Below are positions 5,186 through 8,896 of a stretch of 13,878 nt of DNA, in pieces. Numbering within the stretch: position 1 is the first letter of the stretch; the number at the start of each line of letters is the position of its first letter. The stretch comes from a virus. Its lineage: Duplodnaviria > Heunggongvirae > Uroviricota > Caudoviricetes. The position numbers and the translations under genes were made by a program. The notes under the pieces are model-generated. The model was given only the letters and a program-made list of their open reading frames with translations, was not told the DNA's origin and did no database searches. Location: the IMG/VR virus record IMGVR_UViG_2529293142_000032, positions 1 through 13,878 of that record; one strand, written 5' to 3'.

Positions 5186-5440
5186 TCAACACCGTTCATC
5201 AGTCAGCGTGCCGTTGTCACACTTCACGTTAATGCTGACAAGCTCCGCCGCTTCGGCTGCCTCACGACCATTCAGTGTGGCAAAGTTTGCCGCCGCCGTT
5301 GCCATGAATGCGGTTATCAGTTCGGGATGTGCTTTCGCATACCCTTCACCAAACACGCGCTCGGTGACTTTTTTCGCCGTAAGCATCCAGCTTTCAGCAA
5401 GGCCGGAGGCAACAACTTTGTTTTTTCTGTATCTGCTCAT
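5186..5440 (-). CDS. Hypothetical protein (84 aa), paralog of 8651..8896
   Basis: Shares the core GEGYAKAHPELI(T/S)AFM(A/T)TAAANFA with the 81-aa ORF. Its ATG overlaps the stop of the upstream 220-aa gene. Confidence 0.5.
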   Translation of the reverse strand: MSRYRKNKVVASGLAESWMLTAKKVTERVFGEGYAKAHPELITAFMATAAANFATLNGREAAEAAELVSINVKCDNGTLTDERC

Positions 5441-6099
5441 ATTCCTGTACTCATATCCCGAAAATAAACACCTGTATACTGGGGATCTCTGTTTACTTCA
5501 CCGTCAGGTTCTTTCTGATCTTCCGGTGGTGTCCAGGTATATCCCATGTTCTCAAACATCTGTTTCAGTCTCTGGTGGCCTGCGTCAATCTGTGCCTGAT
5601 GCTGATCGTCATAAAGGGCTTTGGCTTTCCTGACCATCTCGTTAAGCGTTAACGGGATAACATAACGCTGTAGTGCCCTTTCCGCGGCACGCATGGAGGC
5701 CATATAGCCGTTATCGTCGTTGAATGATGTTGAACGGGCAAAGGCTGCAAGGTTGCGTTCTTCATCTGAAAAAAGTTCCCAGCCGCTCACCCGTCGTTCC
5801 ATAAAACGATCCGTAAAGCCGGAAAGTTTGCGGGGACTGTTATTGAGTTGTTTGTCTGCATAAGCAAAATTAGCCCCCGACTGAATGAGATGAAAGGCCA
5901 GGACAGGGTTATGCCTTGCCTTCGGATGCGTGGCTATGCAGTGCGCCGGATTTGATTTTCTGACGGATGCCAGCCCGCCTTCATGCTCGTCATCCTGTGC
6001 GACTGAATGGTATTGCCAGCCACTGAGGGGGCCGCCTGAATAAGGCGGCGACGCAATGGCAAAAGGGCTTTGCTCATCTGGGCGCTGGCTGGATATCAT
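5437..6099 (-). CDS. Hypothetical protein (220 aa), tandem paralog of 6116..6784
   Basis: Shares the blocks NPVLAxxL, a FxERxxxxxWEx(F/L)SDE(D/E) segment and NDDxNGY with the upstream gene. Shine-Dalgarno-like AAAGG about 9 nt upstream. Confidence 0.6.
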   Translation of the reverse strand: MISSQRPDEQSPFAIASPPYSGGPLSGWQYHSVAQDDEHEGGLASVRKSNPAHCIATHPKARHNPVLAFHLIQSGANFAYADKQLNNSPRKLSGFTDRFMERRVSGWELFSDEERNLAAFARSTSFNDDNGYMASMRAAERALQRYVIPLTLNEMVRKAKALYDDQHQAQIDAGHQRLKQMFENMGYTWTPPEDQKEPDGEVNRDPQYTGVYFRDMSTGI

Positions 6100-6115
6100 A
6101 TTGCGTACCTTTGCT

Positions 6116-6784
6116 TCATGGCTTCGTAAACCTTGTCTTCATCCAGGTCATCCGGTGAAACCTGTTGTCCGATTTTTTCAGTTCCTGGTGGTATCTGACG
6201 TGTTCGCAGGCAGCTTTTCGGGCATATTCCTCCTGTAGTTTTTTGGCCTCTATACGACGGCTTTCAGGGTTGTTTTCCCTGTAAAGCGCCAGCGAGAGAT
6301 CAAACTCAGACTGTGTTATGTAGTTGTCACGCATTCCATCCAGCACTTTCAGCGCTGCGGTCTTGCCGGAACTATAGCCGTTGCTGTCATCGTTAACCAT
6401 CGAATAAATCATCGCCTGACGGGCTTTGTCTTCATCGCTGACGAACTCCCATTCCGGTGAATTCTCTGTCATGTGCCGTTCAGTGAAAGCGGTAATAGCC
6501 TCGGGTTCTTCGCGTAGTTTTTTGATGATGGCGGATGATTTCAGGTCGGTTGTCCGCAGAAGTCGGAGAGCAAGAACCGGATTACTTTTTGCTTCCTCCG
6601 AAACGGAAACGTTATGTTCCCGTGTGTGTTTTTTGGGTAACGGTTCAGGCTCGTTGCTGCGAAAGAGGGATTCAGCGCCCTTTACTTCGCTGATGTCAGG
6701 AACATCAGGCTGATTAACGGTATCGCCAGAATTGTCCGCACCAACATTTCGGCCCTTGTTGAGATGTAAAAAAGACATTTTCAC
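6116..6784 (-). CDS. Hypothetical protein (222 aa), tandem paralog of 5437..6099
   Basis: AAGGA Shine-Dalgarno 7 nt upstream of a GTG at 6784 (ATG at 6778). Polar, low-complexity N-terminus followed by a domain conserved with the downstream paralog. Confidence 0.6.
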   Translation of the reverse strand: MKMSFLHLNKGRNVGADNSGDTVNQPDVPDISEVKGAESLFRSNEPEPLPKKHTREHNVSVSEEAKSNPVLALRLLRTTDLKSSAIIKKLREEPEAITAFTERHMTENSPEWEFVSDEDKARQAMIYSMVNDDSNGYSSGKTAALKVLDGMRDNYITQSEFDLSLALYRENNPESRRIEAKKLQEEYARKAACEHVRYHQELKKSDNRFHRMTWMKTRFTKP

Positions 6785-6949
6785 GTTGTTTTCCTTTTTG
6801 TCTGTAGCTTCTGCATTATTGCGGTCTGATACTTGCTTGCGGATTGCCGTTGATGGCCCCGATGAGGCGTTTTTTGATTTTTTTCGGATTTTCCCCCGCC
6901 ATCTAGAAGGTGCGAAATTCTCCCGGCCCCCAGATATTGCAACAAACGA

Positions 6950-7123
6950 TTAGGCATTGCGCCCCCCTTTATTCAGCGCCTCATCAATGAGTTTTCTTGC
7001 CACTTCATGAATGGTTGGCCTGATACCGTAGGCAGAACGTGCCGCTTCGTCGTTGCGGATCCGTTCAAGGCGATCTATCTGTTCACGGGCCAGAAGTACG
7101 GCCCTTACGTTTTTTGCTTTCAT
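6950..7123 (-). CDS. Small hypothetical protein (57 aa), possible regulator heading the paralog operon; not in the ORF track
   Basis: Translation MKAKNVRAVLLAREQIDRLERIRNDEAARSAYGIRPTIHEVARKLIDEALNKGGRNA. GGGG-rich Shine-Dalgarno upstream. AT-rich promoter-like region with inverted repeats at 7130-7210. Confidence 0.4.
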   Translation of the reverse strand: MKAKNVRAVLLAREQIDRLERIRNDEAARSAYGIRPTIHEVARKLIDEALNKGGRNA

Positions 7124-7256
7124 GTGATAACCCCGATAGTGTTTATTGTTTCACATATTGCAATGATAGCACTCATTATTGCGATTAATGAAACACGAAT
7201 GTAATATTAATCAGGAACGGGGTTTCAGTGTTTTTGCAACCGTCATCCTTTAACGA

Positions 7257-7314: not shown

Positions 7315-7361
7315 CTGTAGCTTTGTTTCTTTGTCGTGATATGCCTGACGGAGTGGGGGTA

Positions 7362-7634
7362 TCAGTCGCCCGTCCATTTCCTGAATGCGCTGCCGTTGGG
7401 CTGATGCAGTCCCATTTCCTTTTGCGTCCGGCTTATTGCGGCTTTTGCATCACCGTACTGATCCAGCTTCACGGGTGGGCGTGCTGCCTTACGGATACAT
7501 TCCGCGCGACGTTTTGCCGCCTGCTCTCGTTCCTTATCAGTGTTCACCAGCCGCATCACCTCAGCCCATCGGGCCGCTGCTCTCCGGTACAGTCCCTTAG
7601 CCTCCAGCTCTTCCGCCTTACTGTCATGAATCAT
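7362..7634 (-). CDS. PerC-family transcriptional regulator-like protein (~90 aa from the internal ATG)
   Basis: MIHDSKAEELEAKGLYRRAAARW is paralogous to 1382..1678. Its ATG overlaps the stop of the FinO-like gene (ATGA). Confidence 0.5.
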   Translation of the reverse strand: MIHDSKAEELEAKGLYRRAAARWAEVMRLVNTDKEREQAAKRRAECIRKAARPPVKLDQYGDAKAAISRTQKEMGLHQPNGSAFRKWTGD

Positions 7635-8155
7635 GCGGCTGGTTTCTCCTTTGCTGCCTGGCGCTGACGTTTGCACCTTTCATTCAGCGCCATCAGTCGT
7701 ATTTCTGCGTCCTGCTGTTCCGATGGTGTCACCTCGCCACAAGGCTGGCCTTTCAGGTCGTAACGTGCTCCACCAGCAACCAGGGCACGGTAATAGCGCG
7801 GACACTGCGCATAAGATGCCAGCGCCGCACGTAATGTACCGAGTCCGAACTTCATCCCCCTGGTAGCGATATCCTGCATCATGTCGTCGAATATCCCCAC
7901 CTTCAGCGGCTTCGGTGCTTCCCTATTGAACAGGTCAGGCCACAGCTCAATCAGGCGGTTAACCCGTCGGCGGTTTTTGCGCTGGCGTCTGGTCATATGC
8001 CGCCACGGTGTCGCTTCTGTGGACTTCTGTTTATTGTGCTGTTGAGCCTTCTTCTGATTACCGGGCATCACTTTATGTGCCGATGTGGTTTTGTCCGGCT
8101 TTCCACTCCGGCTTTTCATGTCCCCGCTTTTGTGGTTCAGTGTCAGTGTTATCAT
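7631..8155 (-). CDS. ProQ/FinO-domain RNA-binding protein
   Basis: The segment LIELWPDLFNREAPKPLKVGIFDDMMQDI...LRAALASYAQCPRYYRAL...RYDLKGQPCGEV aligns closely with the N-terminal FinO domain of ProQ. It is preceded by a basic Lys/Arg/Gln-rich N-terminus. Confidence 0.75.
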   Translation of the reverse strand: MITLTLNHKSGDMKSRSGKPDKTTSAHKVMPGNQKKAQQHNKQKSTEATPWRHMTRRQRKNRRRVNRLIELWPDLFNREAPKPLKVGIFDDMMQDIATRGMKFGLGTLRAALASYAQCPRYYRALVAGGARYDLKGQPCGEVTPSEQQDAEIRLMALNERCKRQRQAAKEKPAA

Positions 8156-8291
8156 TTTTTTCTCTCTTGCATCTTACTTCTTGTTGCTTACTGCCTGTGT
8201 GATGACCTGCCTCAGAAGGGCAGGTCATCATCAAAATCACCGGCGTTATTGTCATCAGGTACGCCATGCCCTGCATACTGTTTCGCTCTGT

Positions 8292-8654
8292 TCAGTGCAT
8301 CAGTAGCCTGCCCCTGCTGGCCTTTTTGCCGCCCGGTCGCACAGTTCGGGCACTGATTACGCTGTCTGCGATAACCTGCCAGCCCTGCCGCGTTTCGCCG
8401 TTCTGGCCTGTCCACTGGCTTACCTGCATGTTACCCGCCACGCTCACCAGTTCGCCTTTGTGGTGTCTGGCCAGTGCGTCTGCCTGTCTGCCAAATGCCA
8501 GGACGGATAACCACATCGTCGCCGTTCCGTCATCGGCCTGGCTGCACGGCAGGGGGACCGCCACACTTGCCATCGCCATTTGTGTACCCTTGCTGGTGGT
8601 CTTTAACTGCGGGTCAGCCACCAGCCGCCCGTAAGCCGCTATCTGTGCTGTCAT
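8292..8654 (-). CDS. ssb: Single-stranded DNA-binding protein (SSB-like OB fold), apparently frameshifted; the C-terminal tail is encoded in another frame down to 8212
   Basis: OB-fold-like N-terminus (AAYGRLVADPQLKTTSKGTQMAMASVAV...MWLSVLAFGRQA...). The overlapping ORF 8212..8415 ends in ...GDFDDDLPF, the canonical SSB acidic tail. Confidence 0.7.
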   Translation of the reverse strand: MTAQIAAYGRLVADPQLKTTSKGTQMAMASVAVPLPCSQADDGTATMWLSVLAFGRQADALARHHKGELVSVAGNMQVSQWTGQNGETRQGWQVIADSVISARTVRPGGKKASRGRLLMH

Positions 8655-8896
8655 GCTGTCTGCTCTCCGGTTTTAACGTTGATGGTTGTTACCTGTTCCG
8701 CTTCGGCAATCTCCCGTTCTGTCAACGCGGCAAAGTTTGCAGCTGCCGTTGTCATGAAGGCGCTAATCAGTTCGGGATGTGCTTTCGCATATCCTTCCCC
8801 GGCGTTGCGGTCGATGATTTTTATCGACACCCTTAACCAGTGTTCCGTCAAATCAAGGGCGTGCGATTGTGATTTTTTTGTGTGCTTCGCTGTCAT
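8651..8896 (-). CDS. Hypothetical protein (81 aa), paralog of 5186..5440
   Basis: Same GEGYAKAHPELISAFMTTAAANFA core. Its stop overlaps the SSB start (ATGA). Confidence 0.5.
   Translation of the reverse strand: MTAKHTKKSQSHALDLTEHWLRVSIKIIDRNAGEGYAKAHPELISAFMTTAAANFAALTEREIAEAEQVTTINVKTGEQTA

Follow-up and report, generated by a model that had tools for sequence, protein, structure and literature searches.

How does one island come to carry the same short piece of coding DNA twice, each time joined to a different neighbour, and does the repetition itself do anything? The question is raised by a 13,878-nucleotide stretch of DNA (IMG/VR record IMGVR_UViG_2529293142_000032, positions 1 to 13,878; hereafter the window), which, judged by its gene content, is a Gram-negative phage-inducible chromosomal island (PICI) of Escherichia coli. 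Within it, two small minus-strand genes, small gene A (copy A, 84 amino acids (aa)) and small gene B (copy B, 81 aa), share similar DNA about 3.4 kb apart (Table 1). An earlier note on this DNA had suggested that these direct repeats could delete or amplify the intervening cargo, and that the small protein serves two different modules as an adaptor or chaperone. The reading that we favour, and to which we assign a probability of roughly 60%, is that the two genes are old paralogues of the PHROG 1231 family, that the DNA repeat is a by-product of constraint on the protein, that copy B is ancestral and copy A was recruited, and that the protein probably plays an accessory part in replication.

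A paralogous gene pair sharing a protein core and a DNA patch

That the small gene is duplicated, as the earlier note had it, is confirmed at the protein level: the two products align without gaps, with 40 of 74 residues identical (54%, BLASTP E=7e-27), and have in common the core GEGYAKAHPELI(T/S)AFM(A/T)TAAANFA. Their DNA stands in the same gapless register at a fixed offset of 3450 nt, with an identity that is highest (58/65, 89%) between 5281-5345 and 8731-8795 and drops to noise beyond ~5225-5375. A patch of ~75 nt at 85-89% identity surrounds the longest exact run, the 26-nt ATCAGTTCGGGATGTGCTTTCGCATA at 5316-5341 and 8766-8791, which is bordered by mismatches on both sides and has two matches in the window against none in 200 shuffles. 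The near-identical DNA core described earlier is real in this sense, with the amendments that the exact run measures 26 nt and not 24, and that the coordinates given for the B side (8725-8790) were ~6 nt off register. Translational coupling of each copy to a different neighbour likewise stands up, since both four-nucleotide ATGA overlaps are present: in copy A the stop of the 220-aa gene overlaps the start of the 84-aa gene (5437-5440), and in copy B the stop of the 81-aa gene overlaps the start of ssb (8651-8654). A purine-rich, Shine-Dalgarno-like stretch lies a few bases upstream of each overlap on the minus strand. The positions of the overlaps place the small gene downstream of its 220-aa partner in the one case and upstream of its ssb partner in the other.

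Both proteins belong to PHROG 1231, as seen from a full-length profile match, the common motif and their size (about 80-110 aa in the family). Residues 1-80 of the 81-aa protein align with positions 3-82 of the 83 in the profile (E=1.5e-48), and residues 5-75 of the 84-aa protein with positions 9-79 (E=5.9e-24). A profile search of 1.84 billion representative proteins retrieved 790 clusters at E<=1e-3, mostly of 70-110 aa, and the remote relatives found by profile also match PHROG 1231. The family motif, ID..FG(E/D)GYA(K)xHPEL(I)xAFMxTAA, is nearly invariant (near-invariant columns are I28, D29, G33, G35, A37, P41, L43, M48 and A52) and falls in the loop and second helix of an AlphaFold2 model built from a 58-sequence alignment (pLDDT 86). 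In this model helices 3-32 and 41-78 are joined by the conserved loop, with GEGYAKxHPEL as its invariant part, and the small protein is accordingly predicted to be a helical hairpin of ~80 residues. Close relatives, all annotated as hypothetical, come from E. coli, Shigella, Citrobacter and E. albertii, and the motif is kept as protein in taxa as distant as Nitrosomonas, Beggiatoa and Bacteroides; a scan of genome contigs with a narrow-alignment profile gave five loci.

Among phages, the family consensus was found in a single cultured one, Pseudomonas phage KT1, which indicates that the family resides mainly in integrated elements, and the 81-aa protein had no tblastn match in 50,697 phage records. 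Searches of Pfam, NCBIfam and PADLOC assigned neither small protein to a family, and a literature search with the protein accessions and 'phrog_1231' returned no papers. In one remote member (P0191, 149 aa) the C terminus is extended and finishes with PVYPEDLPF, similar to the acidic SSB tip; no other protein among the 149 representatives shows this.

Within the core, the two copies differ at third codon positions when read in the minus-strand frame, which confirms the minus strand as coding and rules out long antisense open reading frames (ORFs). Codons for residues that are the same in both proteins are identical in 15 of 22 cases in the core and in 10 of 16 in the flanks (Fisher p=0.74), and other B alleles give p=0.13-0.72. 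The patch of DNA similarity probably follows from strong amino-acid conservation, that is, purifying selection on the motif. On the simplest reading, the ~75-bp direct repeat would be the protein motif read as DNA, a by-product and not a recombination device.

Copy B at the origin, copy A in a rare accessory operon

In ~70 E. coli-type loci from IMG/VR and genomes, copy B has a D5_N/DUF5906 primase on one side and ssb on the other, and in most of them it overlaps ssb by ATGA. In the window, the replication origin sits between the primase stop and the start of small gene B, and the iteron GGTGAACAG has 9 matches in the window against 0.12 expected; the ProQ/FinO- and PerC-family genes (7362..8155) complete the transcription unit that holds small gene B. 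In some islands an extra gene of ~98 aa (...GWWVET(D/E)EG...) stands between small gene B and ssb (L003 10530-10826, L096 ~4477-4780, L031 and L008), so that coupling to ssb is common and not universal. The upstream same-strand neighbours of remote homologues (n=49) show an enrichment of primase/helicase domains, with VapE (4), Toprim_3 (3), Prim-Pol (3), DUF927 (2), DUF5906 (2), Zn_Ribbon_Prim (2) and D5_N (1), and also comprise helix-turn-helix (HTH) regulators (7); the downstream neighbours (n=32) include antiterminator Q (3), DNA_pol_A (2) and SSB (2). Taken over all these loci, the most consistent neighbour of the small gene is the primase-helicase with its origin.

Copy A is found in other company. 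It ends an accessory operon whose 57-, 287-, 220- and 84-aa genes all overlap in intact relatives, and the 220-aa protein does have the neighbouring paralogue that had been claimed for it (32% identity over 98 aa, E=3e-13). Of 5,426 complete E. coli genomes, no more than three have the operon with copy A. Public assemblies contain the exact 84-aa protein in 188 indexed blocks, and the architecture is the same in all nine of the places listed. The family of the 220- and 287-aa proteins comprises 35 clusters only, all from Enterobacterales; together with the 57-aa protein, they have no match in Pfam, NCBIfam, PHROGs or PADLOC, and PADLOC gave no family for 10 window proteins, the small and accessory-operon proteins included. 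A reading of the 57-aa protein as a ribbon-helix-helix regulator was a guess from its sequence pattern, unsupported by any profile, and was dropped. The strain 'numer 3' carries copy A together with a RepA-helicase replication module and has no copy B, from which it follows that copy A moves together with its operon, independently of copy B.

In the scheme that we propose, copy B would be the ancestral, syntenic copy within a unit of pri-rep, iteron origin, small gene, ssb, proQ/finO-like and perC-like genes, its translation coupled to that of ssb, and copy A would have been recruited, mid-island, to the 3' end of the rare accessory operon. The protein would act as a dispensable accessory factor of primase-helicase satellite and prophage replicons, binding a partner protein through its conserved loop-helix face, with the primase-helicase or the proteins recruited by it, SSB included, as the candidates. 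Taken by itself, the replication-accessory role is tentative, and we would place it somewhat below even odds.

Several observations weigh against this reading. Many remote homologues adjoin HTH regulators or antiterminator Q, not replication genes, and copy A has neither a primase nor ssb as its neighbour, a position that a replication role leaves unexplained. A cloned pri(-rep) plus ori of EcCICFT073 is reported to sustain plasmid replication (PMC6092414), which counts against the reading if the small gene lay outside the clone, a point on which the text of that paper is silent; provided that it did lie outside, the small protein would be accessory and not essential. Foldseek found no match to the pLDDT-86 model at E<=0.001 in the PDB and BFVD, and sequence and profile searches of the PDB likewise gave nothing significant, designed helical proteins being among the hits. 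At the DNA level, the Nei-Gojobori proportion of synonymous differences (pS) is 0.31-0.41 in the core against ~0.66 in the flanks, where the estimate is dominated by multi-hit codons, and the B allele of EC21GDE043 has only three synonymous differences from A in the core. Occasional short-tract conversion between A and B may have taken place, though the explanation does not need it.

Other roles for the small protein

A broader version of the adaptor idea would make PHROG 1231 a widespread accessory helical-hairpin adaptor of primase-helicase replicons in phage satellites and integrated elements, working at the origin with the primase-helicase, SSB or both, whose conserved core doubles as a crossover point for module swaps and whose copy A provides redundancy. 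Redundancy by a second copy fits three genomes (L003, L096 and L005) in which copy A is intact and copy B is disrupted or absent. In L003 (E. coli 2015C-4136CT1, 10938-11224), copy B contains a 95-bp unit repeated 3.0 times in tandem at 99% identity; the unit starts in the conserved core and is out of frame, which makes this copy B a pseudogene beside an intact copy A on the same island. In L096, copy B is frameshifted. We nevertheless consider this broader version unlikely as a whole. In the form given by the earlier note, an adaptor or chaperone attached to two modules, the idea is not supported, since the partners occur without the small gene: in 'numer 3', ssb lies behind a RepA-type replicon that has no small gene, following an unrelated 257-aa gene with the same 4-nt overlap, and no PHROG 1231 member adjoins the related 220/287-aa-type modules of Providencia and of two other satellites. 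Both occurrences contradict an obligate adaptor for either module and speak rather for a loose functional tie to primase-helicase replicons.

Module swaps through copy B, which are also part of the reading that we favour, are suggested by the B alleles. These fall into N-terminal types (MTAKH..., MHT... and MK.NRKQ...) and C-terminal types (...GEQTA, ...GEVES and ...IKSGEQAA), and all four combinations of N-terminal with C-terminal type occur. When the B loci are aligned with their flanks, a conserved block runs from ~codon 25 to the stop; the sequence before it is unrelated between islands and tracks the primase/origin type, and the block is followed by one of two downstream sequences, either ssb directly or the extra small gene and then ssb. 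With a conserved block between variable flanks, copy B behaves as a module-exchange junction between islands. The conserved 3' two-thirds of copy B would be the shared homologous segment that joins primase/origin modules to downstream modules, and we infer that module exchange probably runs between islands via copy B and not between A and B within one island, which amounts to the recombination idea of the earlier note in altered form, moved from within an element to between elements. A separate observation comes from L092 (E. coli L3_CS7_E2980), in which a related island at the same chromosomal site ends at window ~8875, in the first codons of copy B, and from 6001 on, past the cut, the DNA is unrelated and contains an IS100 element, a second integrase and part of a capsid-protease gene. 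The conserved core plays no part in this breakpoint.

The coupling of copy B to ssb could also mean that the small protein is a specific partner of SSB, as its chaperone, loader or regulator. The ATGA overlap in most E. coli-type loci, the two remote homologues that are followed by ssb and the SSB-like EDLPF end of one remote homologue all speak for such a partnership. It is nonetheless improbable in view of the 'numer 3' ssb, which is preceded by the unrelated 257-aa gene with the same overlap, of the islands in which an extra gene separates the small gene from ssb, of copy A, which has no ssb, and of the low share of SSB (2 of 32) among the remote downstream neighbours.

Copy A might instead be a component of the 57/287/220-aa operon, as antidote, regulator or adaptor in what is possibly an anti-phage or interference module. 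The genes of this operon overlap tightly in intact relatives, the ATGA coupling of the 220- and 84-aa genes included, copy A is intact in L003, L096 and L005, whose copy B is damaged or missing, and the operon lies downstream of pri, where a study of Tai reports an accessory region with immune systems, mid-PICI and adjacent to pri (PMC11364771). The PADLOC search, by contrast, gave no match, and the 220-aa protein had no tblastn match in the 50,697 phage records, a set in which the presence of phi80, encoding the characterised Tai, was left unchecked. Since the related modules of Providencia and the two other satellites also lack an adjoining family member, we regard membership in such a module as doubtful, and no less improbable than a partnership with SSB.

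Possible gene conversion and recombination between the copies

Could the DNA itself be what is kept alike, either through gene conversion between the copies or through a function of the nucleic acid, such as an RNA structure or a protein-binding site? The lower pS of the core and the EC21GDE043 allele would suit this explanation, as would the ProQ/FinO-type RNA chaperone encoded on the island. It is made quite improbable, however, by the same-residue codons, which show no difference between core and flanks (p=0.13-0.74), by the conservation of the motif as protein in Nitrosomonas, Beggiatoa and Bacteroides, and by Rfam, which has no family match anywhere in the window.

The proposal that the cores are recombinogenic repeats, deleting or amplifying the 3.4 kb that hold ssb, the proQ-like and perC-like genes and the accessory operon, has in its favour that the repeats are direct and that a 26-nt exact run lies within the ~75-nt patch. 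The minimal length for RecA-dependent exchange in E. coli, which Shen and Huang reportedly put at ~23-27 bp in 1986, is close to this run. Two artificial junctions represent the products expected of such exchange, a deletion (4800-5341 joined to 8792-9300) and a duplication (8300-8791 joined to 5342-5800), and each was found with >=80% coverage in 0 places in the 5,426 complete E. coli genomes. Chimeric A/B proteins were absent from the 269 retrieved family proteins, the whole 3.4-kb interval is kept in 9 of the 9 contexts listed for the exact 84-aa protein, and the exact run is bordered by mismatches on both sides. Two sets of matches considered as recombinants were rejected: the two-piece matches H72-H74 are single B copies that match both query copies, and those from H86 onward, which overrun the artificial deletion junction by 94 nt, are B alleles of the usual kind with an A-like core. 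Extended DNA identity between the two loci is present, as the earlier note had expected, and structural variants between the repeats were not found, so that by the note's own standard its claim is refuted in one half; deletion or amplification through these repeats is, on this evidence, very unlikely. Lastly, the chance is negligible that the true genes are the plus-strand antisense ORFs 5156-5467 (103 aa) and 8474-8836 (120 aa), which are open across the repeat and share QFGMCFRI, given that the copies differ at third positions of minus-strand codons, that the minus-strand products match PHROG 1231 and its 790 clusters, and that the ATGA overlaps and Shine-Dalgarno-like sequences lie on the minus strand.

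The island and its other features

Nearly all genes called in the window are on the minus strand. Their order begins with an AlpA-type HTH gene, Icd-like and DUF4222 genes, the primase-helicase, the iterons, copy B and ssb, continues with the ProQ/FinO- and PerC-family genes, the terminator-like hairpins and the accessory operon ending in copy A, and closes with a packaging-like block (a phrog_57 TerS-like protein and an HTH protein), a second PerC gene and an IS256-family transposase (Table 1). The hairpins separate the replication unit from the accessory operon.

Table 1 Positions of the genes and other features discussed, in window coordinates
Feature	Position	Strand	Evidence or remark
HTH_17 (AlpA-like) gene	12811-13029	minus	HTH_17 match
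P4-family primase-helicase (Pri-Rep), 610 aa	9184..11016	minus	D5_N, DUF5906, Pox_D5; TIGR01613; phrog_864 E=1.9e-192
Replication origin	8948..9170		8 iterons GGTGAACAG, in both orientations, flanking an AT-rich stretch
Small gene B (81 aa)	8651..8896	minus	canonical PHROG 1231 member, E=1.5e-48; first gene past the origin
DNA similarity patch, B side	8673..8826		contains the exact 26-mer at 8766-8791
ssb	8212..8654	minus	PF00436 E=1.2e-16; read as 120-aa ORF 8292-8654; 147 aa in relatives
ProQ/FinO-family gene	7631-8155	minus	PF04352 E=1.1e-23
PerC-family gene	7362-7676	minus	PF06069 E=5.2e-34
Convergent terminator-like hairpins	7255..7316	minus 7316-7292, plus 7255-7276	minus-strand hairpin of 10 pairs, then T run; consensus matches only
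Accessory operon upstream of small gene A	5437..7123	minus	57-aa, 287-aa and 220-aa genes
57-aa gene	6950-7123	minus	accessory operon
287-aa gene	about 6095-6957	minus	split in the window into ORFs 6781-6957 (58 aa) and 6116-6784 (222 aa)
220-aa gene	5437-6099	minus	paralogue of the 287-aa gene; accessory operon
Small gene A (84 aa)	5186..5440	minus	diverged paralogue; phrog_1231 E=5.9e-24; final gene of the accessory operon
DNA similarity patch, A side	5223..5376		114/154 identical (74%) to 8673-8826

The features by which PICIs are recognised in sequence are found here: pri-rep followed by an iteron origin in which two iteron sets flank an AT-rich region (PMC6092414), an integrase at one end (seen in EC12), an AlpA-type regulator, unidirectional transcription, a length of ~10-15 kb and site-specific insertion. 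Among complete genomes, that of E. coli EC12 comes closest, with 97% identity over 93% of the query. Its island sits next to nfeF, on which side it carries a tyrosine integrase that the window does not reach, and has a tRNA-Ile gene close to its opposite end.

Some gene lengths in the window appear to be artefacts of sequencing. A contig of GCA_002134275.1 is 99.96% identical over 12.3 kb, and against it the window has one substitution and four single-T deletions in T-runs (6179, 6885, 8328 and 13429), which hit the frames of the 287-aa gene (6885 and 6179), ssb (8328) and a right-end ORF (13429). As a result of these deletions ssb is read as 120 aa, its DDDLPF tail lying out of frame in ORF 8212-8415 since a T is missing at 8328, and the 287-aa gene is split in two; the supposed 222-aa paralogue is really the 287-aa gene. 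The pattern of the four deletions looks like homopolymer sequencing error and not decay, and annotators of the window should treat the lengths of the ssb and '222-aa' ORFs as homopolymer frameshift artefacts.

Several further features were observed. A G+C-rich palindrome, ACCCCCCATGGGGGT, at 5143-5165, 20-40 nt beyond the stop of copy A, could end the accessory operon. Three exact copies of GTGTAAATCAAA (4971-4995 and 5062-5073) lie between genes, just past the end of copy A and before the packaging-like genes; with <=2 mismatches the element has 5 matches against 1.5 expected, and could be an operator. The second PerC-family gene (1382-1678, 98 aa) is ~45% identical to the one at 7362-7676, and in EC12, where a stop codon interrupts it, it is annotated as a pseudogene. 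At the left end, the IS256-family (Transposase_mut) transposase gene occupies 1-1209, and 82 bp beside it (1200-1282) are 100% identical to many Stx2 phages and annotated as an IS285-like insertion in one record; this transposase, together with several frameshifts, leaves the activity of the island uncertain. In a region that holds no convincing gene we found a 61-nt inverted repeat (2879-2939 and 3459-3519, 77% complementary) and a tandem pair of 52-nt units (2963-3066, 71% identical). A 394-aa minus-strand ORF at 11617-12801 is called in several assemblies and may be an over-call; at the equivalent place EC12 has Icd-like genes and three small plus-strand genes annotated instead.

Significance and comparison with known systems

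What the locus holds is a real but ordinary pair of paralogues, from a catalogued and uncharacterised family, in a known type of satellite. The repeat has no detectable effect on genome structure, and by itself the finding matters little. Its use is in drawing attention to the gene between ori and ssb, which is among the most conserved of E. coli PICIs, has ~790 clusters of relatives and lacks a Pfam entry. Conserved, widespread and linked to the replication modules of satellites, the family might supply these modules with a further component. Compared with the other proteins of PHROG 1231, those of the window show no difference in kind; what is new is the presence of two members in one element, the second of them outside the replication module.

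Small proteins beside P4-family primases are known from satellite P4, whose Cnr (ORF106) regulates the P4 alpha primase. The likeness is one of functional analogy only, as Cnr lies upstream of alpha and the small gene here downstream of ori. Homology to Cnr (DUF5375) was rejected with an hhalign probability of 0.2%, as was homology to an ORF over the P4 crr region.

In mosaic phages, the modular theory of phage evolution places conserved segments at the junctions of modules. The conserved 3' two-thirds of copy B, set between unrelated upstream and alternative downstream sequences, resembles such segments; it differs from them in that the segment is coding and under protein constraint, and in that the exchange would take place between islands.

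The closest likeness is to the replication module of EcCICFT073-type PICIs. An iteron origin directly 3' of pri-rep is the published organisation (PMC6092414), and primase, SSB and DUF5906 have been grouped with the origin in a replication category (PMC10111431); the small gene between ori and ssb is undiscussed in the PICI literature cited here. The island of E. coli ABU 83972 shares the order pri, ori, small gene, ssb, proQ-like and perC-like. In gene order, in its D5_N/DUF5906 P4-family primase, in the two iteron sets around an AT-rich stretch and in the ssb downstream, the window agrees with this type of module, and it differs from it in carrying, 3.4 kb away in a rare accessory operon, a second copy of the small gene.

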